A stretch of DNA of 64,000 nt, taken from positions 82,077-146,076 of the forward strand of contig JAEWUV010000007.1 in assembly GCA_023396915.1 (NCBI GenBank). Direction: 5' to 3'. The position numbers and the translations under genes were made by a program. Below, one piece after another: positions 25,260 to 57,728 of this stretch. Every line of letters begins with the position of its first letter. Position 1 is the stretch's first letter. Below the pieces are notes generated by a model. The model saw only the letters and a program-made list of their open reading frames with translations. It was not told the DNA's origin and did not search any database. The stretch comes from Candidatus Parcubacteria bacterium. Lineage in GTDB: Bacteria; Patescibacteriota; Microgenomatia; UBA12405.

Positions 25260-25945
25260 TTTAAACAAAAATCTAAAATTAATAAAACATAAATTAACCA
25301 TCTCTTTTTTATAAATATCGGATTTTCAAAACCAAGATAAATCCAGTAGAAAGCCACTGGTAACCCTAAAAATACAAATTTATAAGTATCCCCCATAATT
25401 CTCAAAGTCGAACTAACCAAAACTACAAAAAACCAAACTACTAATAAATTATTTCTTTTCTTGTTTTTAAAATAATTAATTAAACCGGACAACATTAAAT
25501 AAAAGCCTCCAAACCCAACAGTTTTAATCCAAAATACAACCGATAAATACCGTGATAAACCAATAAACCAAGAAAAAAATTTTAAATAACTCCCATAAAA
25601 ATACGGTCTTAATTTAAAAGGCAGCCATAAACCTTCCAAAGAATAACGCTGAATTGACTTGTTTATTAATTGATAGCCCAAAAATGACTGTTCCTTATCA
25701 AAACTTACCGTAAATGGGTTAAAAGTAAAATTTAATAATCTATTTAGATTAAGATTAATTATTATCAATATAAATAAAAAGAGAATAAAAAAAATCAGTT
25801 TACGTTTCAAAAGGAAACAGCTTGAAAACAAACAAAATAAGATTATCCACCAAGATATATTTCTAAACTCACCAAACCAACCACAAAACCAAAAAATTGA
25901 AAAATATACTAGAAATATTTCACCCCCTTTTAGCCTTTTTATCAC
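25256..25945 (-). CDS. Hypothetical small integral membrane protein
   Basis: 229 aa with about 6 TM. Overlap-coupled to the upstream GT-C gene. Confidence 0.45.
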   Translation of the reverse strand: MIKRLKGGEIFLVYFSIFWFCGWFGEFRNISWWIILFCLFSSCFLLKRKLIFFILFLFILIIINLNLNRLLNFTFNPFTVSFDKEQSFLGYQLINKSIQRYSLEGLWLPFKLRPYFYGSYLKFFSWFIGLSRYLSVVFWIKTVGFGGFYLMLSGLINYFKNKKRNNLLVVWFFVVLVSSTLRIMGDTYKFVFLGLPVAFYWIYLGFENPIFIKKRWLIYVLLILDFCLK

Positions 25946-27352: not shown

Positions 27353-28631
27353 AAATATTGACTACCGACAAAGCCCTGGGGACTATTTGATTCTGCCAAC
27401 CAAAAATATCCTTTATCCCGTCCAGATATTGTGGTACTGAAAATACATAAAACATACTCAGAAAAAATATTGTCGTTAAAACAATAAAATACTTAAAATA
27501 ATCTTTGTTGTAAATTGAATAAAACAATAAGGCAGCTAGACTATAAAAAGCATATCTTTCATGCATCCCTGTCATGAACAACCAAGAACCAAAACCAACT
27601 ATAAAAATTGACAAAAATATATTTTTTAACTCTTTATTCTTAACCATCTTAAACGACAAAAGTGTAATTATAACCCAAAAAATATAGCCCCACGTTTTGG
27701 CAAAAAAACCTAAATAAACCCAATCCTCAAAAGCTATTTTACTGGGGAAAGGATAAAAAACATACCAAAAATTAAAAGCATTTTGAGTTACCAAGCCCTC
27801 ACTGGTATTTAACCTTTTTGCCAATAAAAATAACAAATCCGATATTTTTCCATCAACAAACCAAGTTACCGTCCACAAACTAAAAACTCCGGCTAGTAAT
27901 CCTCCTAAAATTAAATTCCGCCAAGGTTGCTTTTGTTTAAACCAAACAAACAAAAACAATGGAGCCAAAAATATACAATCCGGTTTTAAATTTATTGCAA
28001 TTGCATAAAGTAATGGTGCCCATATTGACCTTCTTGTAGTCAGTAATATAAAAGCTATTATCAAAAACAAAAAAGACAATTGATTGGATTGTCCCCAAAC
28101 TGCCGATAAATACCAAGAAAATGGCAACAACAAATATGTCAAAACATATTTCTTCCAGTTAACTTTATTTTTTTGACAGGTTTTATAAATTAACCAAGCG
28201 ACACCAAAATCAGCCAAAACCATTATCTGTTTAATAACAGTAATTACTCCCAACAAAAATTCAGTATTTTCATATCTTGCACCACCAAACCATTCCACAA
28301 ATTTATAATAAAAAGTTAAATGGCCGGCACCCAAATGATTCAAAGCAATAAAATTACCGAAACTTGACATCCACCACATTAACAGACTGTGTATCTTATA
28401 TGACTCAAAATAAATCCAACTTATCAGCGGTGGGTGATTTGGCCAAATACACCCCCAAACATTCCAGTTATACAAGCCCTTTGGCCCTCCACTAACATAC
28501 ATCCATTTAGCCCATTCAACCTGAATTCTGACATCACTATGTGCTGGTAAAAAACTCAACCACCAACGGATTAAAATCAACCCCAACCAAAACAAAATTA
28601 ATTTCCAATTATTCTTAAACCATTCCCTCAT
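27309..28631 (-). CDS. Polytopic membrane protein, second GT-C-like family, paralog B
   Basis: Loop motif VEWAKWMYVSGGPKGLYNWNVWGCIWPNHPPLISWIYFESY. Its 3' end overlaps the convergent paralog A by 44 nt. Confidence 0.5.
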   Translation of the reverse strand: MREWFKNNWKLILFWLGLILIRWWLSFLPAHSDVRIQVEWAKWMYVSGGPKGLYNWNVWGCIWPNHPPLISWIYFESYKIHSLLMWWMSSFGNFIALNHLGAGHLTFYYKFVEWFGGARYENTEFLLGVITVIKQIMVLADFGVAWLIYKTCQKNKVNWKKYVLTYLLLPFSWYLSAVWGQSNQLSFLFLIIAFILLTTRRSIWAPLLYAIAINLKPDCIFLAPLFLFVWFKQKQPWRNLILGGLLAGVFSLWTVTWFVDGKISDLLFLLAKRLNTSEGLVTQNAFNFWYVFYPFPSKIAFEDWVYLGFFAKTWGYIFWVIITLLSFKMVKNKELKNIFLSIFIVGFGSWLFMTGMHERYAFYSLAALLFYSIYNKDYFKYFIVLTTIFFLSMFYVFSVPQYLDGIKDIFGWQNQIVPRALSVVNIFIYLKILVAELKKT

Positions 28632-28685: not shown

Positions 28686-30464
28686 ATGGTTCCAAAGTTT
28701 AGTCTCTTTTCAGTCATCAAAAACAAAAAAATTTTACTGCTCAGTTTGGTCCTTATATTAGGTATTTTTTTACGCTTCTACAAAATAAGTGATTTACCTT
28801 ATCCTTTAAATGGTGATGAAAAGGCTTTTGGTTACTATGCTTGGTCAATTTCTCATTTCGGATCTGATGAATATGGCAATAAATTACCTTTTTATTTTCC
28901 CTCGATTGGCGATTATAAGTATCCAGTTTATACCTATCTTAGTGCCCCTCTCTCTTATATCTTTGGTTTAAACCCTATTCTCCCCAGATTAATTTCTTCT
29001 ATAGCCTCAATTCTCCTAATCATTACTGTTTACAAGTTTTCTTTTTTATTATTTAAATCATCAAAAATTGCTTTAATTTCAGCTATTTTAGTAACCATTT
29101 CTCCTTGGAACATTACTTTTAGCCGTACCGCCTCAGAGGCCAACTTGATGACTTTTCTCTCCTTTTTAGGTTTCTATTTTTTCTATAAGTTTTTAGTCAA
29201 TAAAAAAAATGAAACAAAACTCTTATTTTATTCAGGAATTTTATTTCTAATCTCATTTTTCACTTATTCAGCCAGTAGAGTTTTTATTCCGATAATGATT
29301 TTATTTTTACTTCTCTTTTTAATTTTTACCAAAAATTACCAAAAAATTAAACCAACCTTATTATTTTTTGTCTTCACCGTAATCTTGGTACTTCTATCTT
29401 TTATCAGCCCTTCCAGTCGAGTCAGAGCCAATAATTTGTCTATTCTACCTAATTTCCAAACACGCTATGAATGGATTAATCAATCAACTTATACGCTTGG
29501 CTTAGGCAATCCGACAAACCCTTTGATCACCCGTCTCTTTTTTAACAAAGCAACCGCTTTTTTCAAAGAATTTACCAATCGTTATATATCTCATTTTTCT
29601 TTTAATTACCTTTTTCTAACCGGAGATATTGTCAAACTCAATAGTATTCCTAACTTTGGAAACTTTTATGTTTTTGAAATAATTTTTTTTATTTTAGGTA
29701 TCAGTACTTTAGTAAATAAAATTTTTAAAAAAGATTTAGCTTCTTTTTTAATTTTTTCCGGAATTGTTATCAGCCCAATAGCCGCTTCAACAACCATAGA
29801 AACACCTTCAGCAGTGCGACAGCTTGTTGGCCTCCCATACCTTATTCTTGCAATTTCTCTTGGTTTAAATTTTCTACTTAAAAAATCAAAATTAAGTCTA
29901 ATGGTTATTATCCTTTTTTACGTTTACTTTTTTTTATTTTTACTATTATCTGTTTTTAAAATCAAACCTTATGCCCAACCGTGGACCACCGACCAGGGAA
30001 ATCAGGAATTAGTCAAGATAATCTGGAGTTTAAAGGATAATTACAAATATATCTTTGTTCCCAACGACCCATATATCGACTTTCTTTTTTATAATAAAAT
30101 CACTCCAAAAGATTTCTTATCAAACGCCAAAATCGAAGAAGAAAAAACCGGCAAATGGAATAGAGTTTCTCAACTTCAAAATATTATTTTTAATGTTGAT
30201 TCAAATTGCCCTAAAACTGGTCAAAAAAATGCTTTATATGTCTGCACTGGAGAAGAGATATCTCCGTTTGCCCATATCGTTGATGTTATAAATTACAGTG
30301 ATAATATTCCTCATTACGTTTTAATTGACTTTCCTGGAGGCGATCAGACTCAACAAATCGCTCCTGCCCAAATTAAATACATTCTCCCAAAAGACATGGA
30401 TCAAAGATGGCCATCTGGAATTTTTACCAACCCTAACCAATATTATTTAAACTTAATTTTGTGA
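28686..30464 (+). CDS. ArnT/PMT-family GT-C glycosyltransferase, paralog 1 of 6
   Basis: LRFYKISDLPYPLNGDEKAFGYYAWSISHFGSDEYGNKLPFYFPSIGDYKYPVYTYL is the canonical first periplasmic loop (DE...Y.A.S...G.DE.G...GDYK.P). 592 aa with at least 11 TM. Confidence 0.8.
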   Translation: MVPKFSLFSVIKNKKILLLSLVLILGIFLRFYKISDLPYPLNGDEKAFGYYAWSISHFGSDEYGNKLPFYFPSIGDYKYPVYTYLSAPLSYIFGLNPILPRLISSIASILLIITVYKFSFLLFKSSKIALISAILVTISPWNITFSRTASEANLMTFLSFLGFYFFYKFLVNKKNETKLLFYSGILFLISFFTYSASRVFIPIMILFLLLFLIFTKNYQKIKPTLLFFVFTVILVLLSFISPSSRVRANNLSILPNFQTRYEWINQSTYTLGLGNPTNPLITRLFFNKATAFFKEFTNRYISHFSFNYLFLTGDIVKLNSIPNFGNFYVFEIIFFILGISTLVNKIFKKDLASFLIFSGIVISPIAASTTIETPSAVRQLVGLPYLILAISLGLNFLLKKSKLSLMVIILFYVYFFLFLLLSVFKIKPYAQPWTTDQGNQELVKIIWSLKDNYKYIFVPNDPYIDFLFYNKITPKDFLSNAKIEEEKTGKWNRVSQLQNIIFNVDSNCPKTGQKNALYVCTGEEISPFAHIVDVINYSDNIPHYVLIDFPGGDQTQQIAPAQIKYILPKDMDQRWPSGIFTNPNQYYLNLIL

Positions 30465-31261
30465 AAGATAAAATCTCTATCATTATTGTCACTTGGAACA
30501 CGGCTCAAATTACTAAAAAATGTGTTGATACTATTAATAAATATTTACCAAATCAGGAAATTATAGTCGTCGACAATGGATCTGAAGATAACACGGTAGA
30601 TATACTCAGAAAAATAAAAAACGTTAAAATTATCGAAAATCACGCCAATTTAGGTTTTGCCAAAGCCAACAACATCGGCCTAAAATACGCTACATCAAAC
30701 TACATTGTCTTTATGAATTCGGATATTGAGCTGATAGATATCAGCTTTATTAAAATGATTAATTATCTTAAAATCAATTCCGATATCGGTCTCATTGGAC
30801 CAAAATTTTTAAACCCTGACTTAACCCCCCAAGCCTCTGTTTTTCCACCTCAAACTGCTCTTAACGCTTTCAAAGAATTTTGGTTAGGTAAAAAAGACGC
30901 CTATTCTAAATATTTTCCCAATACTAAAAATCCCATTGAAGTTTCCTATATTTCCGGTGGTTGCATTATTACCAATAAAAAATTTTTTGAAAAAATCGGC
31001 AAATGGAATGAAAAATATTTCTTTTACTTTGAAGACATGGATCTCTGTCGTCAAGTTAGACTTTTCGGCAAAAAAATTATTTTCTTTCCGGAGTGTCAAG
31101 TCATTCATCGCCACGGAGCCAGTGGTAAAAAACTAGCCGACAGTCAAAATCAATGGCGTCGTCTTGTTCCCAGTAGCATTAAATTTCATGGGTTTTTAGA
31201 GCATTATTTTATCAACTTTATAATTTGGTCCGGTCAAAAATGGCAAAAATTAAAACATTAA
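30461..31261 (+). CDS. GT2 glycosyltransferase
   Basis: ISIIIVTWNTAQIT...VVDNGSEDNT...FMNSDI. 266 aa. Confidence 0.8.
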   Translation: MKDKISIIIVTWNTAQITKKCVDTINKYLPNQEIIVVDNGSEDNTVDILRKIKNVKIIENHANLGFAKANNIGLKYATSNYIVFMNSDIELIDISFIKMINYLKINSDIGLIGPKFLNPDLTPQASVFPPQTALNAFKEFWLGKKDAYSKYFPNTKNPIEVSYISGGCIITNKKFFEKIGKWNEKYFFYFEDMDLCRQVRLFGKKIIFFPECQVIHRHGASGKKLADSQNQWRRLVPSSIKFHGFLEHYFINFIIWSGQKWQKLKH

Positions 31262-32556
31262 CTATTAGAAAAGTACTTCTGCTCGGCCTTTTACTAAGGT
31301 TAATATTAGCCATCATCTCCTCTTGGCATCCAGACTTACCCAACCATATCGATTGGGGACTACGGTTCCTTTCTTATGGTTCACACAATTTTTATGAAAG
31401 TTCAATTTGGGGTGTTTCTTGGCCAAACCAACCTTTCGGTAGTATTTTACTTTTTGCTTTTATGGCAATTATTAAAAACGGTCTCTTTGCTTTTATTATG
31501 TTTTTAAACAACACTATTGCCATCTTTCCATCTTTTATCATTCCTGTTTTAGAATCAAATTTACACGCCTGGTTAGTTAAGTTGCCATTTATTTTGTCAG
31601 ATATTGGTTTGGCTTATTTGATTTATAAAATTATTATTAAAATTAACCCAAAAAAAGCTATTCTAGCCGCTTCTCTTTTTCTTTTTAATCCGGTTTTAAT
31701 TTATAACTCCACCATTTGGGGACAAACCGATTCTCTAATTAATTTACTTGCTCTTTTAGGTATTTATTTAATTTTTCAAAAAAAATATTTTCCTGGAATT
31801 CTCTTCTTTTTATCCACTTATCTTTTTAAACTTTCTTTAATCATTTATTTACCTATAGTCGGTTTATTACTACTAAAAAGAATAAAAGACTGGAAACAAT
31901 TTATCCTTCCGATTTTAACTTTCATTTTGTTTATTTTTTTATTAGCTATTCCTTTTACCTTTGCTGACAAAAATCCTTTGGAGTGGGTTTGGTATATGTA
32001 TACCAACAGAGTTCTACCTCGACAAGGAAGTATGTTAAACGGAAATGCTTTTAATTTATGGGCACTTATTTTTAGTATTGATCTTTCCAAATCAGAATTT
32101 AACTTATTTTTAGGGTTAACCTATCAATTTTGGGGCAGGCTTCTTTATATTTTATTTCTCATTCCTGTTTGGTTTAAGTTCATTAAATCAAAATTAACCC
32201 TGCCAGTCCGGCAGGCGGGCCTCAAAAATCTTTTCCTGGCTTTAACTGTAACTGCTTTTGGCTGTTTTATTTTTCTTACCAATATGCACGAAAGATATCT
32301 TTACCCGATTTTTCCACTTATTAGTGTTTTATTTTTTCTACCAAAAAGTAAAATTAATTTAAAATCGATTATTACCCTGTCGACAATTCATTTATTAAAT
32401 CTCTACAATCTTTGGTTTTATCCATCTATCCCCGTGTTAAAAAATCTACTTATTTGGAATAATTATTTCCTTTGCCGTTGTTTATCCCTTATACTTATAT
32501 TGATTTGTTTTAAATATTTTATTCGATATCTAAAAAGTGAAGATGAAAAAGTTTAA
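31240..32556 (+). CDS. Polytopic membrane protein, second GT-C-like family, paralog C
   Basis: HIDWGLRFLSYGSHNFYESSIWGVSWPNQPFGSILLFAFM is similar to paralog B. The ORF track gives 31225. Confidence 0.5.
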   Translation: MAKIKTLTIRKVLLLGLLLRLILAIISSWHPDLPNHIDWGLRFLSYGSHNFYESSIWGVSWPNQPFGSILLFAFMAIIKNGLFAFIMFLNNTIAIFPSFIIPVLESNLHAWLVKLPFILSDIGLAYLIYKIIIKINPKKAILAASLFLFNPVLIYNSTIWGQTDSLINLLALLGIYLIFQKKYFPGILFFLSTYLFKLSLIIYLPIVGLLLLKRIKDWKQFILPILTFILFIFLLAIPFTFADKNPLEWVWYMYTNRVLPRQGSMLNGNAFNLWALIFSIDLSKSEFNLFLGLTYQFWGRLLYILFLIPVWFKFIKSKLTLPVRQAGLKNLFLALTVTAFGCFIFLTNMHERYLYPIFPLISVLFFLPKSKINLKSIITLSTIHLLNLYNLWFYPSIPVLKNLLIWNNYFLCRCLSLILILICFKYFIRYLKSEDEKV

Positions 32557-34216
32557 TTGGGCTTTAGTTCTATTGCTTTTAATATCATTTTTGGTTCGTA
32601 TTTATAAAATCGATACCCTTAGTCTGTTTGGTGATGAAATTGACGTTGGTTATCAAGCCTATTCCTTACTTCAAACCGGTCATGATTACAAAGGTAATTT
32701 TCTTCCTACTTATATTCAATCCCTTTCCGAGTCCCGTGCCCCACTTCTTATTTATCTGAGTATCCTTGGAATCAGGATTTTTGGCCTTACTGAACTTGGT
32801 GTTCGCATCACTCCAATTATTTTTGGAGTTTTAAGTATCTATTTACTCTACCAACTAATTTTTCTTTTTACTAAATCTAATAAACTGGCTCTTTTGTCAT
32901 CCAGTGTCATGGCATTTACTCCTTGGCATTTTCACTATAGCCGTACCGCTTTTGAAGTTACTTTACTTTTATCCTTAACTTTATTAGGAGTCTATTTATT
33001 TGAAAAATTTCTCCAAAAAAATAAATCAATTTTATTATTTTTATCCATTGTTTCTTTTGGACTAACTTTTTATACCTATAATACCGCTAATATTTTTACT
33101 CCACTTTTGGTAATTTTTTTACTTATTTTCAATTTTTCCAAACTAAAAGAAAAAATTAATTCAAAAACCATCATCATTTCTTTTCTGTTTACTTTACTTT
33201 TTATCATCCCTATATTAACCCAAATATTTTCCGGTCGGGCAGCCAATCGGTTTGGGCTAATAAGCATCTTTAATGATCCAAAAACCATTAACAACATCAT
33301 TGATCGTCGAACTTCGTTTTCTGCCGTCAGTCAATCCCGTGAAAGATTTTTTTACAACAAAGCCACCATGTGGCAACAATCGTTTTTTCAAAATTATCTT
33401 CAATCCTTATCTCCCTCATTTTTATTTACCACCGGTGATATTAATAATGTCCGTCATAGCCTTCCTCATTTTGGACTACTATTTTTATCTTTTTCCCCTT
33501 TACTTATTATCGGTCTTTTTAAATTAAAACCAGATGACAAACTTAACAAATTAATGTTATTTTGGCTTTTTACTAGCCCTATTGCCTCAAGTTTGACTAT
33601 TAATGGCGGAAACCATGCTACCAGACTTTTTTTAATGCTGCCTCCATTGGTCTTTTTTGTCGGGCAAGGAGTAAACTACTTAATTTCTTCATCTTCAAAA
33701 ATATTTAAAATTATCATTGTCTTTATAACCTTACTTTTTGTTTTTGAGGCCTCATTTTATACTCATGAATATTTCAATAGGTATTCCAAAGAATATTTTT
33801 TAGATTGGAACTATGGTTACAAACAGTTATTTCAATCTGTTCCCGTTTCAACTGCCAATCGCATTTTTATTAGTAACGCCAATTACAATTCACTTCTACC
33901 TTTTTTGTTTTATCAAAAAATATCTCCCAATCAAGTTAAAATTAATGACTTAGAACAACCATCTATATACCAAGATATGAATGGTTTTAAAATTTCTGAT
34001 AATTTTTATTTTATTAATAACTGGCAACTATCCTCTGATATCTTTGAAAGGCTTAAAAAAACAGCTGAATCAGGTGATGTTTTTTTACTTTTCCAACTTA
34101 AAGATATTCCCGGTGATATGGATTTTTCCCAAAAACCACTTGAAGGGTTTAAAACCATCCAGACTGTTTACAATCCTAACCATAGTATCTTGGGTCAAGT
34201 TATTCAAAAATTATGA
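32537..34216 (+). CDS. ArnT/PMT-family GT-C glycosyltransferase, paralog 2 (first of five contiguous)
   Basis: LVRIYKIDTLSLFGDEIDVGYQAYSLLQTGHDYKGNFLPTYIQSL. 559 aa. Confidence 0.8.
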   Translation: MKMKKFNWALVLLLLISFLVRIYKIDTLSLFGDEIDVGYQAYSLLQTGHDYKGNFLPTYIQSLSESRAPLLIYLSILGIRIFGLTELGVRITPIIFGVLSIYLLYQLIFLFTKSNKLALLSSSVMAFTPWHFHYSRTAFEVTLLLSLTLLGVYLFEKFLQKNKSILLFLSIVSFGLTFYTYNTANIFTPLLVIFLLIFNFSKLKEKINSKTIIISFLFTLLFIIPILTQIFSGRAANRFGLISIFNDPKTINNIIDRRTSFSAVSQSRERFFYNKATMWQQSFFQNYLQSLSPSFLFTTGDINNVRHSLPHFGLLFLSFSPLLIIGLFKLKPDDKLNKLMLFWLFTSPIASSLTINGGNHATRLFLMLPPLVFFVGQGVNYLISSSSKIFKIIIVFITLLFVFEASFYTHEYFNRYSKEYFLDWNYGYKQLFQSVPVSTANRIFISNANYNSLLPFLFYQKISPNQVKINDLEQPSIYQDMNGFKISDNFYFINNWQLSSDIFERLKKTAESGDVFLLFQLKDIPGDMDFSQKPLEGFKTIQTVYNPNHSILGQVIQKL

Positions 34217-35865
34217 AAACAAAAATACTCCTCATTTTAATAATAATCGTCGGAGCTTTTCTGAGATTTTATAAATTAGGTACTTTGCCCAACTCATATT
34301 CTCCCGATGAATTATCCCAAGCTTATACCGCCTACTCAATTCTACAAACCGGCAAAGATGAGTGGGGGAACAGTAACTGGTTGAATTTACGTTCCTTTGG
34401 TGACTACAAACCACCCCTGCAAACCTTATTAATGATTCCTTCAGTTAAAGTTTTTGGATTAACCCCCTTCTCTGCTCGTTTTCCCAATGCTTTTTTATCC
34501 GTCTTTACTATTCTTCTGACTTATCTAATCGCTGATATCTTATTTAAAAACAAAAATATTTCTCTTGTAAGTGCCCTTTTTATATCCATTTCGCCCTGGG
34601 CCCTACCTATGTCTCGAATTGCCCTCGAAGCTAATTTATTAATCTTTATAATTTCACTGGCTTTTTATCTCTGTTTATTGGCCCAAAACAAAAATAATAG
34701 TTTATTTTTTATCTTATCAGCCATATTTTTTGGCCTCAGTCTTTTTACTTATCATTCAAGTAAAATTTTTACTCCATTATTTTTAATTCTTCTGATAATT
34801 TTTCAAAAAACTTATAGACAACCCAAAAAACTTGTTTTATTTTTAATAACTTTTTCTCTTTTCCTATTTACTCTGTTCTGGACTAACTCCCAAATCAAAA
34901 CTAACCGCACCGGAGACATTGCTATCTTTAATCCCACTGACAAATGGAGTTATGTTTCAAACAGCCAATTTGAAATCACTCAAAACGGATTACCTTATTT
35001 TTTAACCAAACCTTTCTACAATAAAATTACCTATTTATATGAAACTTTTAGCACAAGTTACCTTTCCTATTTTTCTCCCCAATTCTTACTTACTCAAGGT
35101 GCCGGCGAAACCACCTACGGTATGATTCCCGGATATGGAGTCTTAGGGTTGATTCCTTTCTTAGGTTTACTTTTTTGTCTGATTCTATTGATCCAAAAGA
35201 AAGTTACAAAAGATTCAAATAATATAATTTTTATATTTTTGGCCATCCTAATCCCTCCATCAATTGCCGCAATTGCCAAGGGCAGTTACTCTGCCAACAG
35301 AGTTTCTTTGATGACCCCCTTTATTCAAATTCTTTCTGCTGTTGGGTTAAGTTTTTTTATCAAAAATTTACCCCAAAAATTCCAAAAAATCTCCTATTCT
35401 ATATCTTTAATACTGTTTTTTAGTCTAAATAGTATCTTTTTAATCCGCTATTTTTATCAGGGTAATCAAATTCTAGCCGAAGGCATGCTCTATGGTCATA
35501 AACAAGCCAATGAATACATTCAATCCCATTCAGCATCACAAATTATTTACTCCCGAAAACTTTCAGAACCGCAAGCTTACGTCAGTTTCTTTAATCATAT
35601 AAATCCGCTCATCACTCAATCAGAATCTAGTAATTGGCTAGAATACCAAACCAAAGGCTTATCTTTTCTTGATCAATTGGGAGAATACAAATTAAGTAAT
35701 TTTATTTTTAGGGAAATTAATATTCCCAGTGACAGTCAACTTCCAAATACTCTTATTATTGGTCGCCCAGAAGAATTTAGGGATATCAAACCCGATTACA
35801 TTATTTATTATCCTAATCACTCTCAACTAAAACCGGCAATCTACATTTATCATACCAAAATATGA
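34213..35865 (+). CDS. ArnT/PMT-family GT-C glycosyltransferase, paralog 3
   Basis: LRFYKLGTLPNSYSPDELSQAYTAYSILQTGKDEWGN...FGDYKPPLQTLL. The ATGA stop/start overlaps the previous gene. Confidence 0.8.
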   Translation: MKTKILLILIIIVGAFLRFYKLGTLPNSYSPDELSQAYTAYSILQTGKDEWGNSNWLNLRSFGDYKPPLQTLLMIPSVKVFGLTPFSARFPNAFLSVFTILLTYLIADILFKNKNISLVSALFISISPWALPMSRIALEANLLIFIISLAFYLCLLAQNKNNSLFFILSAIFFGLSLFTYHSSKIFTPLFLILLIIFQKTYRQPKKLVLFLITFSLFLFTLFWTNSQIKTNRTGDIAIFNPTDKWSYVSNSQFEITQNGLPYFLTKPFYNKITYLYETFSTSYLSYFSPQFLLTQGAGETTYGMIPGYGVLGLIPFLGLLFCLILLIQKKVTKDSNNIIFIFLAILIPPSIAAIAKGSYSANRVSLMTPFIQILSAVGLSFFIKNLPQKFQKISYSISLILFFSLNSIFLIRYFYQGNQILAEGMLYGHKQANEYIQSHSASQIIYSRKLSEPQAYVSFFNHINPLITQSESSNWLEYQTKGLSFLDQLGEYKLSNFIFREINIPSDSQLPNTLIIGRPEEFRDIKPDYIIYYPNHSQLKPAIYIYHTKI

Positions 35866-37463
35866 AATCCAAACTTCCAATATTTTTTATTCTCATTTTA
35901 GGATTTATTCTCCGGATTATTTTTATCAACCAACTTCCGCCCAGTCCAAATTGGGACGAAGTCTCTCACGGATTTAACGCCTATTCAATTCTTAAAACCG
36001 GACATGACGAATGGGGGACTTTCATGCCTTTAATTTTCAGATGTTTTGGCGATTTTAAACTACCTTTATATATCTATTTAACCGTAATTTCGGTATTTTT
36101 ATTTGGCCTTAACACTTTCTCTGTCCGTCTTGTTTCAATTCTTGCCGGCACCCTTACCATATTTTTCATTTACCTCATTCTCAAAAAGATTTTACTTTAC
36201 CCGTCCGGCAGGCGGGCCAAAAATAATCTCATTCCCATTATCAGCGGCTTCATAGTTTGTCTTTCACCCGGTTCTATTTTTCTTTCCCGAATTGCTCTTG
36301 AAGCTAATCTATTTATGTGTCTTTTTCTAATATCCTTCTATTTTCTTTTATCCAAAAAATACGGCTTAAGCAGTTTTATTTATGGTATCAGTCTTTTTAC
36401 CTATAACAGTAGCCGTGTTTTATTACCCTTTTATTTAACCTGTCTAATTTACCTTTTAATAAAAAGCAAGGTTAAACCCCTAAAAGAATACTTAAAATTT
36501 ATCCCTTTTGTTTTATTATCGCTATTAGCCTTAGCTCAGACCTTAAATCAATCAGGTCAAGCTCGTTATCAATGGGTCTCTATTCTCGACTCCGGCTCGA
36601 TTAATCAGATAAACGAATTACGAGCTACTTATCCCCGAATTTTAGTCAACAAAGTTACCTATTTTACCTTTTCTGCTGTCAAAAACTACCTTAGTCATTT
36701 TAATCCCCAATTTCTTTTTATTAACGGTGGCTCCAACTACCAATTTAATATCCCGAATTTTTATCTAATTAGTCCATTATTTCTACCATTTTTAATATTG
36801 GGTTTAATTTATCTTTTTAAGACTATCAAAAATGACTATTCCAAGATAATCCTCTTTTTCTTTTTAATTTCTCCCATCCCTTCAGCCATTACTCGTGATG
36901 CTCCTCATATTTTACGAAGCATTGTATTTATTCCGTTTAGTATTATAACTATCTCCCTAGGATTTAGTTATTTTGTCAAAAAATTTAAAAAATTATCCTT
37001 AATTTATTTCTCCATCGCCCTTATTACTACCCAAATTTTATTTTGGCCAAAATATTTTACCTACGCCAAGCAATATTCTGCCTCTTGGCAATATGGTTAT
37101 TCTCAGGTGGTTTCGTATATCAAAACTAACTACAACAGTTACGATCAAATTATTTTTACCAAAAAATATGGCGAACCTCACGAATTTATTCTATTTTACT
37201 GGCCCTGGAACTCTGACAATTACCAACACGATACTTCTAAAAATTGGGATTATCACGCTAATTGGTATTGGATTAATGCTTTTAATAAATTCGTTTTCAT
37301 AAATGATTGGGAAATCAAAGGCTATACTCAAAATCTACCTTTAGACAAAAAAATACTTTTAGTTAGCTCTCCAAACAACTATAATCAAACTAACACTAAT
37401 CTTTTGCAAACCATCAATTTTTTAGATGGATCTCCTGCTTTTGAAATCCTGGAAATAAAATGA
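35862..37463 (+). CDS. ArnT/PMT-family GT-C glycosyltransferase, paralog 4
   Basis: NWDEVSHGFNAYSILKTGHDEWGTFMPLIFRCFGDFKLPLYIYL. ATGA overlap with the previous gene. Confidence 0.8.
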   Translation: MKSKLPIFFILILGFILRIIFINQLPPSPNWDEVSHGFNAYSILKTGHDEWGTFMPLIFRCFGDFKLPLYIYLTVISVFLFGLNTFSVRLVSILAGTLTIFFIYLILKKILLYPSGRRAKNNLIPIISGFIVCLSPGSIFLSRIALEANLFMCLFLISFYFLLSKKYGLSSFIYGISLFTYNSSRVLLPFYLTCLIYLLIKSKVKPLKEYLKFIPFVLLSLLALAQTLNQSGQARYQWVSILDSGSINQINELRATYPRILVNKVTYFTFSAVKNYLSHFNPQFLFINGGSNYQFNIPNFYLISPLFLPFLILGLIYLFKTIKNDYSKIILFFFLISPIPSAITRDAPHILRSIVFIPFSIITISLGFSYFVKKFKKLSLIYFSIALITTQILFWPKYFTYAKQYSASWQYGYSQVVSYIKTNYNSYDQIIFTKKYGEPHEFILFYWPWNSDNYQHDTSKNWDYHANWYWINAFNKFVFINDWEIKGYTQNLPLDKKILLVSSPNNYNQTNTNLLQTINFLDGSPAFEILEIK

Positions 37464-39094
37464 AATTTATAAAACAACCTAAAATTTTTCTAACCCTGAT
37501 TTTTTTTGTTTCCTTTTTAATTCGTTCCATTTTTATCTATAAAACCCCTCTTTTGTGGGACGAAGCCTCACTAGGTTACAACGCCTATTCAATTCTTCAA
37601 ACAGGAGGCGATGAATATGGCCAATTTTTACCTCTAATTTTCAAATCATTCGGTGATTACAAGCCCGGATTCTATGTTTATTTATGTCTTCCTTTTGTAA
37701 AACTTTTTGGGCTTAATTTATTCACTGTCAGACTCCCATCTATTTTAGCCGGATCTCTTTTACCTGTATTTCTTTATTTACTCATCAAAAAAATCAGTCC
37801 TAAGAGCCATAAAATTGCCCTTATTGCCGCCTTAGTTGCCACCTTTAACCCTTATAATATCCATTTTAGTAGGGGAGCCTGGGAAACTAATCTTCTCACT
37901 TGTGAATTGGTTTTAGCCGCTTACTTTTTCTATTCCTATCTTCAAAAACAAAAATCTAAATATTTATTTTTCTCTGCCTTAATTTTTGGTCTTTCTTTAT
38001 TTACCTATCAGGCCGGAAAAATGATTAGTCTTTTTCTTGTTTTAATTCTCCTTGCTCTTAACTACAAAAAACTTAGCCTCAAAAAGCTTTTTCTTAACTT
38101 TATCCTCCCTTTAGGAATATTAGCTTTACCTATCGCTTATGGTTTACTTTTTAACAGCAACAGTAATCGCCTCAAAGTAGTCAGTCTTTTTTCTTATCCT
38201 AGATCCGAAGCCGAAACACAGACTATTATTAGTGAAACAAATCAAGTAGATTACAATATTTTTTACAGTCAACCCATGTTTTTTATCCGTAACTTTCTTT
38301 CCCGCTACTTCAATCATTTTTCTCCAAAATTCTTAGCTTTTGAAGGCGACTGGCAAAATCCCCGACACTCAGCTCCTTACATTGGCGTTTTACTTTATCC
38401 TAGCCTTATCTTTCTCTTTATTGGTATTTTTTTTGCTCTAACTCATCTCAAAAAACAACCAATTAATCAGTTTTTTATCTTGTGGCTCTTAGTTTCTCCT
38501 ATCCCCGCTGCTCTCACTCGCGATTCTATTCAATCAGTCCGAGCTATGTCATTTTCTGTTCCTTTAGTCTATTTTATTTCCCTAGGCCTCTTTGCTTTTT
38601 TTGAAAAGTTTAAATCAAAATTAGTTTTATTAGCTATTTTAGTAGCCTATCTGGCCTCATTTATTTATTATGGTGATCTTTACCTAAATCATATGGTCAA
38701 AAAAGCCCCTTATGATTTTCTTTTTGGCTATCAACAAGCTATGGAATTTACTATAAAAAATCAAAATAAGTATCAAAATATCATCTTTACTGATTTTTAT
38801 GGTCAGCCTTATATTTTTTATCTTTTCTTTTCCCAATATTCGCCTCAAATTTATCAACAACAGGCCAATCTTTTAGAAAGTTCGCTAGATACCGGTAAGA
38901 TTGAGTCTTTAGATAATATCCGATTCAGAACACCTGACTTTGAAGCGGTCAAAAACACCCCAAACACCTTAGCTATTTTTTCTCAGGAAGAAATATACCG
39001 ACAGGGAATTGATAAAAAAGATGAATTTAAAAATTTTATTCCTCTAAGCCCAATTGGTAATATTTCTACCTTCTACGCCTATGAAAACCCTTAA
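37460..39094 (+). CDS. ArnT/PMT-family GT-C glycosyltransferase, paralog 5
   Basis: LWDEASLGYNAYSILQTGGDEYGQFLPLIFKSFGDYKPGFYVYL. ATGA overlap with the previous gene. Confidence 0.8.
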   Translation: MKFIKQPKIFLTLIFFVSFLIRSIFIYKTPLLWDEASLGYNAYSILQTGGDEYGQFLPLIFKSFGDYKPGFYVYLCLPFVKLFGLNLFTVRLPSILAGSLLPVFLYLLIKKISPKSHKIALIAALVATFNPYNIHFSRGAWETNLLTCELVLAAYFFYSYLQKQKSKYLFFSALIFGLSLFTYQAGKMISLFLVLILLALNYKKLSLKKLFLNFILPLGILALPIAYGLLFNSNSNRLKVVSLFSYPRSEAETQTIISETNQVDYNIFYSQPMFFIRNFLSRYFNHFSPKFLAFEGDWQNPRHSAPYIGVLLYPSLIFLFIGIFFALTHLKKQPINQFFILWLLVSPIPAALTRDSIQSVRAMSFSVPLVYFISLGLFAFFEKFKSKLVLLAILVAYLASFIYYGDLYLNHMVKKAPYDFLFGYQQAMEFTIKNQNKYQNIIFTDFYGQPYIFYLFFSQYSPQIYQQQANLLESSLDTGKIESLDNIRFRTPDFEAVKNTPNTLAIFSQEEIYRQGIDKKDEFKNFIPLSPIGNISTFYAYENP

Positions 39095-40697
39095 AAAACT
39101 TATCTTACCATTAATTTTAACTATCGCTTTCTTAATCCGAGGTATTAGTATCAACAGCACTCCGGCCTTAAACCCTGACGAAGCCGCTTTAGGTTACAAT
39201 GCCTACTCGTTGATCAAAACCGGCAAAGACGAACACGGGATTTCTTGGCCGCTTCATTTCAAATCATTTGGTGATTATAAACCCGGGGGTTATGTCTACT
39301 TAGATATTCCTTTCATTTACCTATTCGGCCTAAAAACTTTTGCTGTCCGTCTTCCCAATTTAATCCTCTCCATTTTAACTATTTTATTTTTATACAAACT
39401 TGTTTTGCTACTTACCAAAAACTATTTACTATCAGACTTAACCGCTTTTGTTTTAGCGGTCAGCCCTTGGCATATCCACTTCAGTCGAGGAGCCTGGGAA
39501 AGTTCAGCAGCACTTTCTTTTATAGTTATTGGTACCTATTTCTTCTTCAAATCAATCTCAGAAAAATTTTATAAAAATTTCACCCTATTTATTATCTTTT
39601 ATATTTTTTCTCTTTATATTTACCATTCTGCTCGGCTTATTGCGCCTCTTCTAGCCTTAAGCTTGATTATTTTATATTTCAAATTTCTTATTAAAAAATT
39701 ACCCAAATTAATTTTGCCCCTAATTTTGGGTGTTTTATTAGCAATACCTGTTTTATATTCATTTTTAAATAATGGCGGTACCACCCGTATTGGCGGAGTC
39801 GGGTTAACTGCTGATCCGGGGCCAGCTAGTCGCTCCGAAGAACTTCTCAATCAACACCAAGGTGTCAAATTAATTAATCGGGTTATGCATAACAAACGGG
39901 TTTTATATCTCATTTCTTGGGGTGAAAAATATTTTTCCCACTTCGATCTTAATTTCTTAGCCATCAATGGCGATGAGGTTCCTCGATCCAAAGTTCCTGA
40001 AATGGGTCAAATTTATATCTTCGAAATTCCATTTTTAATTTTAGGCATCATATTTTTAATCAAATCTAACTTATTTAGCTCAAAATCAAAAATTTTTATC
40101 TTTCTTTTCCTTTTTATCGCCCCGATTGCTTCCTCCTTAACCTTCCAAGCCCCGTCTGCCCTTAGAAGCCTGGCCATGGTCATTCCACTTTCAATTTTTA
40201 TTTCTTGTGGTATTTTTTATTTTTTCCAACTTACTAAACAAATTAAAATCAAAAAAACTATCTTAATTATATTTGGATTATTTTATCTTTATTCAATTTC
40301 TTATTACTTTGATTCTTATTTCCTTCACTACGCCAAACGTTATCCCTTTGCTTGGCAATATAAATTTGATGAATTAGTCCCTTGCCTCGAACAGGAAAAA
40401 ACAAATTACCAAAATATTTATATCACCAATAAATACGATCAACCCTATATCCTTTTCCTTTTCTTTTCCCAATATCCGCCAACTCAAATTCAATCTCAAA
40501 TCAAACTATCAGAACCTGACCAGTTTGGTTTTTCTACTGTTAATAACTACGATAACTATTATTTTGGTAAAATTAATTGGGATAACATTCCCACAGGTTC
40601 TTTGGTAGTCGCTTCTGACGAAAGCATACCGGAGTTACCTTTTAAAACTATTTACTTTAGTAACGGGCAAGCTGCTTTTAAAATTTATAAAAAATAA
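39081..40697 (+). CDS. ArnT/PMT-family GT-C glycosyltransferase, paralog 6
   Basis: LNPDEAALGYNAYSLIKTGKDEHGISWPLHFKSFGDYKPGGYVYL. ATG at 39081; the ORF track gives 39054. Confidence 0.8.
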   Translation: MKTLKKLILPLILTIAFLIRGISINSTPALNPDEAALGYNAYSLIKTGKDEHGISWPLHFKSFGDYKPGGYVYLDIPFIYLFGLKTFAVRLPNLILSILTILFLYKLVLLLTKNYLLSDLTAFVLAVSPWHIHFSRGAWESSAALSFIVIGTYFFFKSISEKFYKNFTLFIIFYIFSLYIYHSARLIAPLLALSLIILYFKFLIKKLPKLILPLILGVLLAIPVLYSFLNNGGTTRIGGVGLTADPGPASRSEELLNQHQGVKLINRVMHNKRVLYLISWGEKYFSHFDLNFLAINGDEVPRSKVPEMGQIYIFEIPFLILGIIFLIKSNLFSSKSKIFIFLFLFIAPIASSLTFQAPSALRSLAMVIPLSIFISCGIFYFFQLTKQIKIKKTILIIFGLFYLYSISYYFDSYFLHYAKRYPFAWQYKFDELVPCLEQEKTNYQNIYITNKYDQPYILFLFFSQYPPTQIQSQIKLSEPDQFGFSTVNNYDNYYFGKINWDNIPTGSLVVASDESIPELPFKTIYFSNGQAAFKIYKK

Positions 40698-41521
40698 TGA
40701 AAAAACAACCACTACTCTCTGTCACTCTAGCCACTTACAATGAATCAAAAAATATTACCCGTTGTCTAAACGCTATTGCCGATATCGCTGATGAAATCAT
40801 AATTGTTGATGGTCAATCTCAAGATAATACCGTTGAATTAGTCAAAAAATTTAAAAACACCAGAGTAATTTCTACTACCAACAAACCTATGTTTCATATT
40901 AATAAACAAATGGGGATAGACGCCGGCAAAGGTAAATGGATTCTTCAACTAGACGCTGATGAAATTGTTACTGAAAAACTCAAAGAAGAAATTAAGTCAA
41001 TTATTAATAAAGATGTCAATCAAATTCCAGAAAATGGTTTCTGGATACCTCGCAAAAACTATTTTTTGGGGACTTTTTTAAAAAAAGGCGGACAATATCC
41101 TGACCCAACTATTAGATTTTATAAAAACGGCAAGGCTCATTTACCTTGTAAAGATGTTCACGAACAAGCTCAAGTCGAAGGATCTGTTGGTTGGCTTAAA
41201 AATGATATAGAACACTATGCTGATACTTCATTTTCTTTGTATTTACTTCGAGCTAACCGCTACACCACCCTTTTAGCTAATGAATTAAAAGAAAAACACA
41301 CTAAAATAGGCTTTGCTAATTTTTTAAATTTTTACCTCTTCAAACCTCTTTGGTGGTTTCTGAAAACCTTTTTCCGTCATCGTGGTTACGTTGATGGTTT
41401 CCCAGGTTTCGTTTTCTCTTTCTTTTCGGCGCTCAGATTTCCAATTGCTTACACCAAATATTATGAGTTAGTCAAAACTAATCGAAATATTAATTTATCC
41501 CAAGATTGGGACAAAAAATAA
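40697..41521 (+). CDS. GT2 glycosyltransferase
   Basis: LSVTLATYNESKNI...IVDGQSQDNT...QLDADE. 274 aa. Confidence 0.8.
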   Translation: MKKQPLLSVTLATYNESKNITRCLNAIADIADEIIIVDGQSQDNTVELVKKFKNTRVISTTNKPMFHINKQMGIDAGKGKWILQLDADEIVTEKLKEEIKSIINKDVNQIPENGFWIPRKNYFLGTFLKKGGQYPDPTIRFYKNGKAHLPCKDVHEQAQVEGSVGWLKNDIEHYADTSFSLYLLRANRYTTLLANELKEKHTKIGFANFLNFYLFKPLWWFLKTFFRHRGYVDGFPGFVFSFFSALRFPIAYTKYYELVKTNRNINLSQDWDKK

Positions 41522-42616
41522 ATGGCAAGAAAAATAAATATTGCTATTGATATTTCACCTACTATTGATGGTAATTCTGTCAGAGGCGTTGGTTACTATA
41601 CCCAAAATTTAGTTGATGCCCTCCAAAAAGAAATTAAGACTAATCCTTTATATAAAAATTGGTCAATTGACCTTATCAAAAACAACCAATATCTAAAATC
41701 CAATATCTATCATCTAATTCACTATCCTTATTTTGATCCATTCAAACTCACTCTACCTCGTAATAATAAACCCACTGTTGTTACTGTCCACGACCTGATT
41801 CCCATCCAGTTCAAAAGTCATTTTCCTGTTGGGTTTAAAGGTTGGTTAAAGTGGCATATTCAGAAGTTTCATCTTCGTCGGGTTTCGGCCATCATCACCG
41901 TATCTGAATATTCCAAAAATATAATCTCTAAACTTATTAAATATCCCCTTAACAAAATAGTAGCCACCCATTTGGCGGCTGACGAAAACTTCAAAGTCAT
42001 TTCCGATACTAAACTTTTAAAATCAATTACCCAAAAATATAAATTACCTCCAAAATTTGTCCTTTTTGTCGGCGATATAAATTGGAATAAAAACATTCCC
42101 AATCTAGTCAAAGCCTGTAAAAAATGTAAATTCCCTTTGGTTATTGTTGGGTCTAGCGCCACTAAAACAGATGTCCCTATCCATCCTTGGACAAAAGATC
42201 TTCGTTGGCTTCAAAAACAAGCTAACAAACCAACAACCAAAAAAAATAAAAGACTTATACTAACCGGTTTTGTTTCCGATCAAGAATTGGCCGTTATTTA
42301 CAATTTGGCTACAGTTTATTGTCAGCCATCATTTGCTGAAGGTTTTGGTTTACCACTAGTTCAAGCGATGCAATCTGGTTGCCCGGTAGCCCACGGCTTT
42401 CATACCTCACCTCCAGAAGTTATGGGAGATGTTGGTTTATCTTTTAATCCTCGTTCGGTCGAAGATATTCAATCAGTTCTCAAAAAATATTGGAATGATT
42501 CTAAACTACGTCGAAATCAAAAAATATTAGGCCTATCCCGAAGCCATATATTTAAATGGTCCACCACCGCTCAAAAAACCCTCGCCCTGTATTCAACCCT
42601 AATCCCAAATGAATAA
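41522..42616 (+). CDS. GT4 (GT-B) glycosyltransferase
   Basis: C-terminal FAEGFGLPLVQAMQSGCPV. 364 aa. Confidence 0.75.
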   Translation: MARKINIAIDISPTIDGNSVRGVGYYTQNLVDALQKEIKTNPLYKNWSIDLIKNNQYLKSNIYHLIHYPYFDPFKLTLPRNNKPTVVTVHDLIPIQFKSHFPVGFKGWLKWHIQKFHLRRVSAIITVSEYSKNIISKLIKYPLNKIVATHLAADENFKVISDTKLLKSITQKYKLPPKFVLFVGDINWNKNIPNLVKACKKCKFPLVIVGSSATKTDVPIHPWTKDLRWLQKQANKPTTKKNKRLILTGFVSDQELAVIYNLATVYCQPSFAEGFGLPLVQAMQSGCPVAHGFHTSPPEVMGDVGLSFNPRSVEDIQSVLKKYWNDSKLRRNQKILGLSRSHIFKWSTTAQKTLALYSTLIPNE

Positions 42617-43409
42617 TAATCACTTTATCTCGATAATTGTCCCTGTTTATAAACAAGAAAAAACTATTGCCAAAGACTTAGACAATATTTCTTCTGTTTT
42701 AAAACAAGTTCGCTATGATTATGAAATCATAGTTGTTGTTGATGGTACTAAAACTGACAAATCCTATCAAATTATTAAAAAATTAAAATTTCCTAAAGCA
42801 AAAACTTACGGTTACAAACATAATCACGGCAAGGGTTATGCTATTCGCTATGGTATGGCTAAAACTAAAGGGGATTACATTGCTTTTATTGACTCCGGCA
42901 TGGAAATTGATCCCAACGGTCTTTCTATGATTCTTGAACATATGGAATGGTATAACGCTGATATTATAGTTGGTTCAAAACAACATCCAGCTTCAGTTGT
43001 AAATTATCCTTTCCAAAGAAAAATAATAAGTTTTGGTGGCTATCTGATAGCCAAATTCTTACTTGGAATTAATGTCCATGACACCCAAGCTGGTCTCAAA
43101 ATTTTCCGTCGTCAAGTTTTAGAAAAAGTTCTTCCCCGACTTTTAATCAAAAATTATGCTTTTGATTTAGAAATACTTTCTGTTGCCAATCATCTTGGTT
43201 TTACTAAAATTTACGAAGCCCCGGTTAAGCTTAACTATAACTTCAAAAGTTTAACTCACGCCACTGGTTTTAAAGTTATTTATAGATGTTTAGTTGACGC
43301 ATTAGCTGTTTTTTATCGGCTCCGTATACTTAAATACTACGATGACAAAAACAAACGCAAGTGGGTTTATGACCCTGATTTAGAAATGAGAATTAACACT
43401 GGTCTATGA
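42609..43409 (+). CDS. GT2 glycosyltransferase, Dpm1-like polyprenyl-phosphate sugar synthase
   Basis: ISIIVPVYKQEKTI...VVDGTKTD...FIDSGME. 266 aa. Confidence 0.75.
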   Translation: MNNNHFISIIVPVYKQEKTIAKDLDNISSVLKQVRYDYEIIVVVDGTKTDKSYQIIKKLKFPKAKTYGYKHNHGKGYAIRYGMAKTKGDYIAFIDSGMEIDPNGLSMILEHMEWYNADIIVGSKQHPASVVNYPFQRKIISFGGYLIAKFLLGINVHDTQAGLKIFRRQVLEKVLPRLLIKNYAFDLEILSVANHLGFTKIYEAPVKLNYNFKSLTHATGFKVIYRCLVDALAVFYRLRILKYYDDKNKRKWVYDPDLEMRINTGL

Positions 43410-54488: not shown

Positions 54489-54493
54489 AATAG

Positions 54494-56305: not shown

Positions 56306-56307
56306 CT

Positions 56308-56917: not shown

Positions 56918-56927
56918 GACCAAAAAA

Positions 56928-57456: not shown

Positions 57457-57728
57457 AAAATCAATCTCCTATTTTTAGTATTTCCATCTACACCATGCGC
57501 TTTATGGTGAACGGAAAACTAACTCCAAAATATTTAGAATCAATTTTCCATTCACCATTTTTTTAATGTGCCTTTCTTTAAAATACCAAAACTGCTTATA
57601 GCTTTTTCTTTTAAAGGAACGCCCTAATTCTACCAAAAAACCCCTTATTAGTCAATAATTATAGGATATATTTTAAACTAATTAATCAAGCTTTTCTTAA
57701 AAAATGTTAAACTTCTCTATATATTCTT

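Follow-up and report, generated by a model that had tools for sequence, protein, structure and literature searches.

A syntenic array of GT-C-type glycosyltransferase paralogs in a candidate envelope glycan locus of Microgenomates bacteria

We analysed a 64,000-nucleotide stretch of contig JAEWUV010000007.1 (hereafter the window), from a Microgenomates bacterium of the Candidate Phyla Radiation (CPR), for an array of genes encoding membrane glycosyltransferases of the GT-C type. Named homologs placed this bacterium in Candidatus Shapirobacteria. Seven paralogs of a single family were found in or next to one operon, five of them in an unbroken run. The surrounding locus brought the number of GT-C-type genes in the window to 14–15, or 16 if 51722(-) is counted. 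Genes are named here by the first coordinate of their open reading frame (ORF), with (-) for the reverse strand. This scale, in a genome of ~0.9 Mb, is new, and so is the conserved gene order across Microgenomates lineages. With moderate confidence, we read the array as an extracytoplasmic assembly line, which would decorate or extend a wall-linked polysaccharide with sugars taken from polyprenyl phosphate.

Seven paralogs and their predicted fold

Five successive ORFs of 533–559 aa occupied positions 32537–40697 on the forward strand, with a sixth, of 592 aa, at 28686–30464. The original prediction, made from the DNA letters alone, had described exactly these six. The run consisted of 32537–34216 (likely start ATG 32543), 34213–35865, 35862–37463, 37460–39094 and 39054–40697 (likely start ATG 39081). 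The gene at 23679–25301(-), previously taken for a distant relative, was found to be a seventh full-length member. Pairwise identity was 27–35% over the full length, with blastp E values of 1e-31 to 1e-83 among the six forward-strand paralogs, and in their alignment each had 28–32% full-length identity to the first sequence. 23679(-) matched the other six over 440–550 aa, with E values of 1e-24 to 1e-43. A family hidden Markov model (HMM) scored the seven members at 508–896 bits (558 for 32537, 509 for 34213, 546 for 35862, 608 for 39054, 515 for 28686 and about 518–519 for 23679(-)), and the next window protein, 8410, at 39 bits. Judged by sequence, all seven clearly form one family. The closest paralogs in all-against-all blastp tended to be neighbours (34213-35862-37460-39054), which fits serial tandem duplication.

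The predicted GT-C identity was borne out by Pfam, with limits for single members. The PMT_2 model (PF13231, gathering threshold 26.1 bits) recognized five of the seven: 23679(-) (46.3 bits), 28686 (33.4), 32537 (50.2), 34213 (47.8) and 37460 (54.1). Two stayed below it, 35862 (16.2) and 39054 (17.8). PF02366 (PMT) passed for 32537 (37.9 bits), 34213 and 37460, in matches that took in the DE region described below; it was just under threshold for 28686 and 39054 (20.5 bits), and gave nothing for 35862 and 23679(-). The NCBIfam scan of 37460 returned a single weak match, Agl23, and none to ArnT. Two family profiles (A1, A2) run against all PDB sequences gave no GT-C match, which left fold comparison, and no residue mapping onto ArnT or PMT.

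The loop signature noted originally was present in the array, as DE...(Y/F)xA(Y/W)S...TGxDExG...FGDYKP. It deviated in 32537, which had DY for the second DE and SLSESRAP for FGDYKPP. The corresponding variants were IGDYKYP in 28686 and GNDE...MDEH...HRDYKAP in 23679(-); the DE motif of 35862 was intact.

We modelled the 37460 protein with AlphaFold2 (AF2) from a 33-sequence alignment holding all seven paralogs (predicted local distance difference test score, pLDDT, 85.1; predicted template-modelling score, pTM, 0.86). The model had 11 transmembrane (TM) helices, a first outer loop with helices at residues 33–48 and 70–83, a second long outer loop (232–314) that also contained helices, and a C-terminal alpha/beta domain (416–544). 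Paired helices in a long first outer loop, further helices in a second such loop and an alpha/beta domain at the C terminus, all present in the model, are listed as features of the GT-C core (PMC10265970). In a Foldseek search against the PDB all significant matches were GT-C enzymes, the best TM-scores being those to ArnT (0.53/0.54), the comparison proposed originally. The scores for ArnT, ALG12 and STT3 were as high as those for PMTs, and the fold match extended to AftA, AftB, AftD and Emb. On the strength of the model, we regard the GT-C fold of the array proteins (GT-C_A type, PMT_2/ArnT/PMT clan) as established. No one characterised family is clearly the closest.

Six residues, D34, E35, D51, R91, E142 and R361 (37460 numbering), were invariant in the 33-sequence alignment, and R138 and R237 were ≥90% conserved there; all eight were universal across the five orthogroups of the run. 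In the model they lay in outer loops or at outer helix ends, the D34-E35 pair six residues past TM1, at the start of helix 33–48. Lys and Arg made up 9 of 26 residues in the short inner loops vs 6 of 78 in the short outer loops; by the positive-inside rule, this distribution speaks for an N-in protein whose DE pair faces outward. The term "periplasmic" used originally should read "extracytoplasmic", as the host is a monoderm-type CPR bacterium. The invariant outer-face Arg residues could bind phosphate.

Because the presumed catalytic DE motif and the other invariant acidic and basic residues are present in all copies, pseudo-enzymes are unlikely. A reading of the array as an artefact of assembly, or as a group of enzymes in decay, could appeal to the two members below the Pfam thresholds. 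We give it hardly any credence and consider it refuted. The exact 37460 protein occurred on 16 independently assembled contigs of up to 0.2–1 Mb, with the same neighbours each time, and the 28686 protein on 10 contigs, the longest of 906,714 bp. The paralogs, at ~30% identity, have diverged beyond anything that collapsed or duplicated reads could create. All reading frames were intact, the catalytic residues were invariant in the seven paralogs, the five run members had orthologs of 50–77% identity in other species, and the synteny recurred in relatives.

Nineteen genes, from 28686 to 51739, abutted or overlapped without a gap, the sixth paralog 28686 opening this operon. The ATGA overlaps that had been proposed throughout the run were present at three junctions (34213, 35862 and 37460), whereas 37460 and 39054 overlapped by 14 nt from the likely ATG 39081, or 41 nt from TTG 39054. 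The gene at 40697 overlapped its predecessor by one base. A consensus scan of 27–46 kb for promoters and terminators gave nothing exceeding shuffled controls. Because of this and the gap-free arrangement, the five-gene run is probably co-transcribed, as first proposed.

Conserved order and ancient duplications

Gene by gene, we compared 22 loci from different GTDB species. The order 30461-31225-32537-34213-35862-37460-39054-40697-41522-42609-43406-44310 was held in ~10 species, with one-to-one orthologs at 42–86% identity, mostly >50%. Orthologs of 34213 were found in 11 loci (65–76% identity), those of 39054 in every locus reaching its position (50–77%), and orthologs or close relatives of 35862 in nearly every locus covering its position. 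32537 formed its own orthogroup in at least nine species. 28686 had orthologs in locus L006 (66%) and in Woesebacteria locus L025 (35%, a diagonal best match). For the core members, one-to-one orthologs of 50–77% identity came from at least 20 species. In more distant species 35862 (38–41% identity), 37460, 39054 and the downstream genes remained. The array was present in Shapirobacteria and Woesebacteria, and a Levybacteria locus had two adjacent family members.

The complete Woesebacteria genome CP065002.1 encoded counterparts of 28686, 32537, 31225, 34213, 35862, 37460 and 39054. Its six array paralogs followed the same relative order as in the window; the 31225-like gene lay between the 32537-like and the 34213-like gene, while in the window it precedes 32537. 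Four 8410-like PMT_2 genes preceded the array. The bit-score matrix between the two genomes was strictly diagonal (219–380 on vs 85–231 off the diagonal). In a neighbour-joining tree of 102 family members each window paralog fell in its own clade, and Shapirobacteria and Woesebacteria shared paralog-specific motif quirks (DY/SL.E.R.P in the 32537 type, also in the Woesebacteria ortholog, and IGDYKYP in the 28686 type). From the separate clades, the diagonal matrix, the common order and the shared quirks, we conclude that the duplications are ancient, older than the split between Shapirobacteria and Woesebacteria, and that each copy has been kept. The array is thus not a recent expansion.

Residues conserved within and different between orthogroups made up 27–29% of the outer loops and the C-terminal domain vs 0–18% of the TM segments. 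This enrichment outside the membrane is the pattern expected of distinct acceptor or donor specificities.

Between the orthologs of 35862 and 37460, five related species carried an ORF of ~204 aa (L009:7814-8404, L011:7758-8372, L012:295-909, L013:7766-8383 and L020:2648-3265), followed by an eighth paralog. The ORF aligned to GT-C residues 260–388 (hhalign, 90%) and looks like a retained truncated family member.

The paralogs might instead be a diversification cassette, a Gtr-like serotype-converting panel that alters the cell surface in defence against phages or in host recognition, with fast paralog turnover. Three-component systems are classic seroconversion devices (PMC11127046), some species have the extra paralog and the truncated relative just described, and more distant Shapirobacteria lack the upstream members 28686, 32537 and 34213 or have other genes in their place. 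We nevertheless hold this to be very improbable. One-to-one core orthologs in so many species and a six-paralog order common to Shapirobacteria and Woesebacteria are the opposite of rapid turnover, and Pfam scans recognized no mobile-element genes flanking the array.

Donor synthases, glycan genes and the proposed pathway

Candidate donor synthases were encoded at four sites. Two genes past the array lay a GT2 gene (42609–43409, forward strand) resembling dolichol-phosphate mannose synthase (DPMS), a candidate polyprenyl-phosphate sugar synthase that would supply the array with donors. Its best solved relative was the Pyrococcus DPMS 5MLZ, over residues 7–205 (E 3e-12); it had NCBIfam similarity to PpgS and ArnC across the whole catalytic domain, and was among the most conserved genes of the operon (72–83% identity). 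An ArnC/GtrB-like GT2 at 7689–8417 matched ArnC (5e-16) and GtrB (1e-15) over residues 6–215 in phmmer against the PDB, with NCBIfam support, and a GtrB-like GT2 at 9909–10679 matched GtrB 5EKP over residues 4–204 (2e-11). Each immediately preceded a GT-C gene (8410 and 10552, respectively), which is the arrangement of Gtr-type modules. The fourth, at 62658–63590(-), resembled a full-length GtrB/PgfS-type polyprenyl-phosphate hexose synthase (GtrB 5EKP, 6.5e-68, residues 6–306; NCBIfam PgfS 244 bits, ArnC 133 bits) and also aligned to ArnC. By these alignments 7689, 9909, 42609 and 62658(-) look less like ordinary GT2 enzymes than like synthases of polyprenyl-phosphate sugars.

Between 7.7 and 63.6 kb, the window consisted almost wholly of glycan genes, among them 13 GT2 and four GT4 genes. 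A cytoplasmic GT2 gene of the operon preceded the five-gene run, at 30461–31261 (Pfam Glycos_transf_2, 94 bits; syntenic, 42–78% identity), and another GT2 gene came right after it, at 40697–41521 (68.6 bits; orthologs of 48–86% identity in every locus reaching it). A GT4 gene followed at 41522–42616 (Glycos_transf_1 and Glyco_transf_4). Export genes were a Wzx/MOP flippase (13914–15404; Polysacc_synt_3 155 bits, NCBIfam MOP flippase 126 bits) and, at 55490–58457, a Wzm/Wzt-like exporter, made of an ABC-2 permease (55490–56305; ABC2_membrane) and an ABC ATPase (57729–58457; ABC_tran) with small ORFs between them. In NCBIfam the permease scored best against the galactan-export Wzm, although its 76 bits fell short of the cutoff for that model. 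RfbH (60228(-); NCBIfam 611 bits, cutoff 423) and the UDP-galactopyranose mutase Glf (61484(-); 385 bits, cutoff 304) occupied 60228–62650 on the reverse strand; by annotation, they predict 3,6-dideoxyhexose and galactofuranose in the product. The locus also held a hexapeptide acetyltransferase. An LCP (LytR-CpsA-Psr) ligase, of the type that joins glycopolymers to peptidoglycan, was encoded at 1756–2790 on the forward strand (Pfam 78.9 bits; NCBIfam 62.6, cutoff 62.3).

In the assembly line that we propose, cytoplasmic GT2 and GT4 enzymes would make a lipid-linked glycan, which Wzx, the Wzm/Wzt-type ABC exporter, or both would carry across the membrane. The DPMS/GtrB/ArnC-like GT2 enzymes (42609, 7689, 9909 and 62658(-)) would attach single sugars to polyprenyl phosphate. 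Once these donors have been flipped outward, each of the seven PMT_2-type paralogs would move one sugar to its own position, linkage or acceptor stage, the Asp/Glu pair in the first outer loop acting as the catalytic residues. The other GT-C types of the locus would act likewise on the exported polymer, and the LCP ligase would finally join it to peptidoglycan. We thus infer that the donors are polyprenyl-phosphate monosaccharides and the acceptor a polysaccharide of the wall, not a protein or lipid, and that each paralog has its own specificity, with the enzymes acting in sequence. The earlier suggestion that each GT-C adds one sugar outside the membrane is reasonable as a model, since donor synthases are encoded in the locus.

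Several observations weigh against this proposal. More distant Shapirobacteria have 12211-like membrane proteins and a diverged 32537-like gene in place of the upstream half of the array, which means that some steps are not conserved everywhere. No GtrA, SMR or MATE donor flippase was matched by Pfam among the small and membrane ORFs, even at E≤5. That the donor would be phosphate- rather than diphosphate-linked is suggested by Pfam PMT/PMT_2 similarity, no solved relative being detectable by sequence. A distance of 5 kb separates the LCP gene from the glycan genes, and its surroundings are unrelated genes (RF-1, FtsEX). Finally, the PMT family comprises protein O-mannosyltransferases and a DUF11 surface protein adjoins the locus, which makes a protein acceptor conceivable.

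The last point leads to another reading, in which the paralogs are protein O-glycosyltransferases (PMT/TMTC-like), each with its own group of substrates among secreted or surface proteins (type IV pilins, S-layer proteins, and sortase-anchored or DUF11-type surface proteins), much like the seven yeast PMTs. The PF02366 matches in 32537, 34213 and 37460, which include the DE region, are in its favour. So are a DUF11/CLIPPER surface-repeat protein at 6949–7599(-), flanking the glycan locus, and a 1360-aa CLIPPER/SpaA protein (L026:1-156) beside the Levybacteria locus; both are possible glycoprotein substrates. The window also encodes a protein of 589 aa at 51722–53491(-), with ~10 TM helices, C-terminal TPR repeats and the motif GDFVSDDYA just past TM1; its architecture and SDD motif are presumably TMTC-like, although Pfam recognized only the TPRs. 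Pili and sortase substrates abound on CPR surfaces (PMC6744442), and glycosylation of pilins has been predicted for Saccharibacteria, so far untested (PMC11623550). We consider this reading unlikely, though plausible enough to be kept in mind. In Pfam scans no array member had a TPR domain, nor the MIR domain that eukaryotic members of the protein O-mannosyltransferases (GT39; yeast Pmt1–7, bacterial Pmt) carry in a loop. The gap-free GT2/GT4 operon, in a locus with Wzx, an ABC exporter, Glf and RfbH, is a typical setting for polysaccharide assembly, and the structural scores to ArnT, ALG12 and STT3 equal those to PMTs. Bacterial Pmt, moreover, is normally a single gene.

Alternatively, the GT-Cs might elaborate a membrane-anchored lipoglycan or glycolipid, resembling lipomannan/lipoarabinomannan or lipoteichoic acid, and not a polymer linked to peptidoglycan. 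The logic of the donors would be identical to that of the wall-polysaccharide assembly line, the LCP gene stands outside the operon, and GT87-like and MptA_B-like genes, whose mycobacterial counterparts make lipomannan, occur in among those of the array. Lipid synthesis, however, is generally absent from CPR bacteria. The window does encode an LCP ligase, and Pfam scans recognized no genes for lipid-anchor synthesis there; we therefore rate a lipoglycan product as improbable.

The remaining GT-C-type genes of the window fell into several groups. Three of the four genes originally listed as distant PMT_2 relatives are so indeed: 8410–9894, overlapped by the end of 7689 (PMT_2 28 bits; hhalign to the array family 98.2%), 10552–12189, listed before as 10663, near which its true start may lie (35.5 bits; 98.1%), and 22231–23682, listed as 22282 (49.7 bits; 98.3%), all on the forward strand. 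A PTPS_related-type membrane protein at 12211–13977(+) is a probable GT-C, as its hhalign match to the array family (93.9%) covered the N-terminal 190 columns; its homologs in locus L026 carry PF10131. 58469–60241(-) belonged to the GT87 family (27.6 bits, cutoff 25).

A further GT87-like family comprised 31225–32556(+), a multi-pass membrane protein of ~440 aa (likely start ATG 31240), and its paralogs 26024–27352(+) and 27309–28631(-). In blastp, 26024 had 25–28% identity to the other two. 27309(-), recognized by blastp and hhalign, was syntenic in several related loci. 31225 sits directly 5' of the five-gene run, between 28686 and 32537; it was syntenic in ~10 species and also stood within the Woesebacteria array. 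Neither Pfam nor NCBIfam gave a match for it. The profile of this family matched 58469(-) at 98.2% and the array family at 93.5% in hhalign, and it is probably a second GT-C family by that measure. The assignment rests on hhalign, since the AF2 model, from a 4-sequence alignment, reached a pLDDT of 51.5 and was not used for fold search. Together, the 15 GT-C-type genes take up 23.7 kb.

The gene at 15362–17092(+), which adjoins Wzx and encodes 576 aa with ~12 TM helices, had no match in Pfam or NCBIfam, and hhalign did not link it to the families of GT-C type; it may be a polymerase or a ligase. For both 15362 and the TM part of 51722(-), hhalign found no significant link to the array family.

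Levybacteria contig k141_588973 (L026, 188644-210272) mirrored window positions 7.7–19.7 kb with its modules reordered. It held a 9909-like GT2, a gene of the MptA_B family, a GT-C resembling 10552, a pair of GT-Cs of the array family, an FAD oxidoreductase, two PTPS_related genes resembling 12211, a 7689-like GT2, Wzx and three GT2 genes. This resemblance indicates that other parts of the locus are also conserved across Microgenomates.

Two radical SAM genes in the operon, 44310–45800(+) and 47799–48821(+), one of a B12-binding, HpnJ-like type and the other of the SPASM/twitch type, were syntenic in relatives and may modify sugars by C-methylation or epimerisation. Between the long forward-strand operon and the ABC exporter genes, 53511–55471(-) held a YvcK/CofD-related gene and a gene with RhuM and Fic domains. 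No tRNA genes or Rfam matches were found in the 64-kb window. Its G + C content was ~32%. The GC skew of the forward strand was negative in 31 of 32 2-kb windows and cumulatively fell almost steadily to -6.05, without a turning point. This recalls a strand-composition disparity reported for another Microgenomates genome (PMC7143001).

Relation to known systems and significance

A close functional parallel is the mycobacterial arabinan/arabinogalactan set (AftA-D, EmbA/B/C), in which several outer-face GT-Cs, including those of the tandem embCAB, build arabinan, each adding one sugar donated by a polyprenyl monophosphate to an exported, wall-linked polysaccharide (PMC10265970, PMC11127046). This is what we propose for the array, which likewise consists of tandem paralogs in a locus with Glf, an ABC-2 exporter whose best match is a galactan Wzm, and an LCP ligase. 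The differences are considerable. The array proteins are of PMT_2 type, with fold-level similarity to Aft/Emb (GT53/85/89) and no relation at the sequence level, and they have no Emb-like carbohydrate-binding module domains. Neither a UbiA-type DPPR synthase nor DprE1/2, of the decaprenylphosphoryl-arabinose (DPA) pathway, was recognized in the window, where the donor synthases are GT2 enzymes of DPMS/GtrB type. Pfam gave no match to UbiA, DprE or Arabinose_trans in the 57 window ORFs of ≥120 aa (E≤0.001 to 0.01, some laxer). The array has seven paralogs of one family in a fixed order, while embCAB has three, and its host is a CPR bacterium of ~0.9 Mb.

Gtr-type three-component systems (GtrA-GtrB-Gtr*, and in Gram-positives a GtrB-like GT2 with a PMT_2/YfhO-type GT-C) also encode a polyprenyl-phosphate sugar synthase together with a GT-C. 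The pairs 7689-8410 and 9909-10552 look like canonical modules of this kind, and 62658(-) is a full-length GtrB homolog. In contrast to these systems, the only flippase detected was the Wzx/MOP protein 13914. In known three-component systems each module has a single GT-C, and the occasional "multiple GT-C" cases on record were left unexplained (PMC11127046), whereas here seven paralogs in or next to one operon are followed by one DPMS-like gene. Gtr systems are serotype-variable, and the array is deeply conserved.

An ArnT (GT83) function was considered and rejected: the family profiles did not match the solved ArnT, NCBIfam gave no ArnT match, and there was no ArnA or ArnD in the window, whose DegT-family gene scored as RfbH and not as ArnB (142 bits). 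To our knowledge, moreover, a monoderm-type CPR cell should have no lipid A acceptor. The array belongs to neither the ArnT nor the Aft/Emb family, and probably not to the eukaryotic PMT family either.

The multiplicity of paralogs, called highly unusual before, is not without precedent; examples are embCAB, the Aft enzymes, the roughly dozen GT-Cs of mycobacteria and the seven PMT paralogs of yeast. Nor is the family rare in public data, where we counted 5,904 clusters (50% identity) at E≤1e-30 and 14,648 at E≤1e-10. The idea of an undescribed pathway holds insofar as we found no paper describing the array, but its members are already auto-annotated in public records, as "glycosyltransferase family 39" or "ArnT-like", and the array is widespread in Microgenomates. 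A search of the literature on GT-C, PMT_2, GT39 and ArnT in CPR, Patescibacteria and Microgenomates found no paper on such arrays, which is no proof that none exists. The main texts of Méheust 2019 (PMC6744442) and a 2024 PNAS perspective (PMC11665869) do not mention glycosyltransferases, and one Microgenomates genome paper merely counts 29 of them (PMC7143001).

The enzymology of polyprenyl-phosphate sugars and outer-face GT-Cs is already established, so the surprise is limited. The envelope of CPR/Patescibacteria, on the other hand, is almost unexplored, though these cells live by surface contact with their hosts. The investment is as large as had been supposed: an organism that has very few genes for metabolism devotes 55.9 kb to the locus, or 6.2% of the 906.7-kb contig. 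Together with a gene order that predates the divergence of Shapirobacteria and Woesebacteria, this speaks for an envelope glycan that is conserved, structurally complex and of consequence for fitness. The seven paralogs, with their orthogroup-specific outer-loop residues, and the four candidate donor synthases offer targets for biochemistry, and the array is a natural experiment on how GT-C acceptor specificity diversifies.

We also put forward a bolder and more doubtful idea. Microgenomates (Shapirobacteria, Woesebacteria and relatives) might build a lineage-defining, arabinogalactan-like wall heteropolysaccharide almost wholly at the outer face of the membrane, through an ordered line of 7 to 15 GT-Cs, with gene order and translational coupling reflecting either the order of sugar addition or a hetero-oligomeric GT-C complex. 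If true, such a polymer would represent a major class new to bacterial cell envelopes and would be central to the way in which these episymbionts display their surface.

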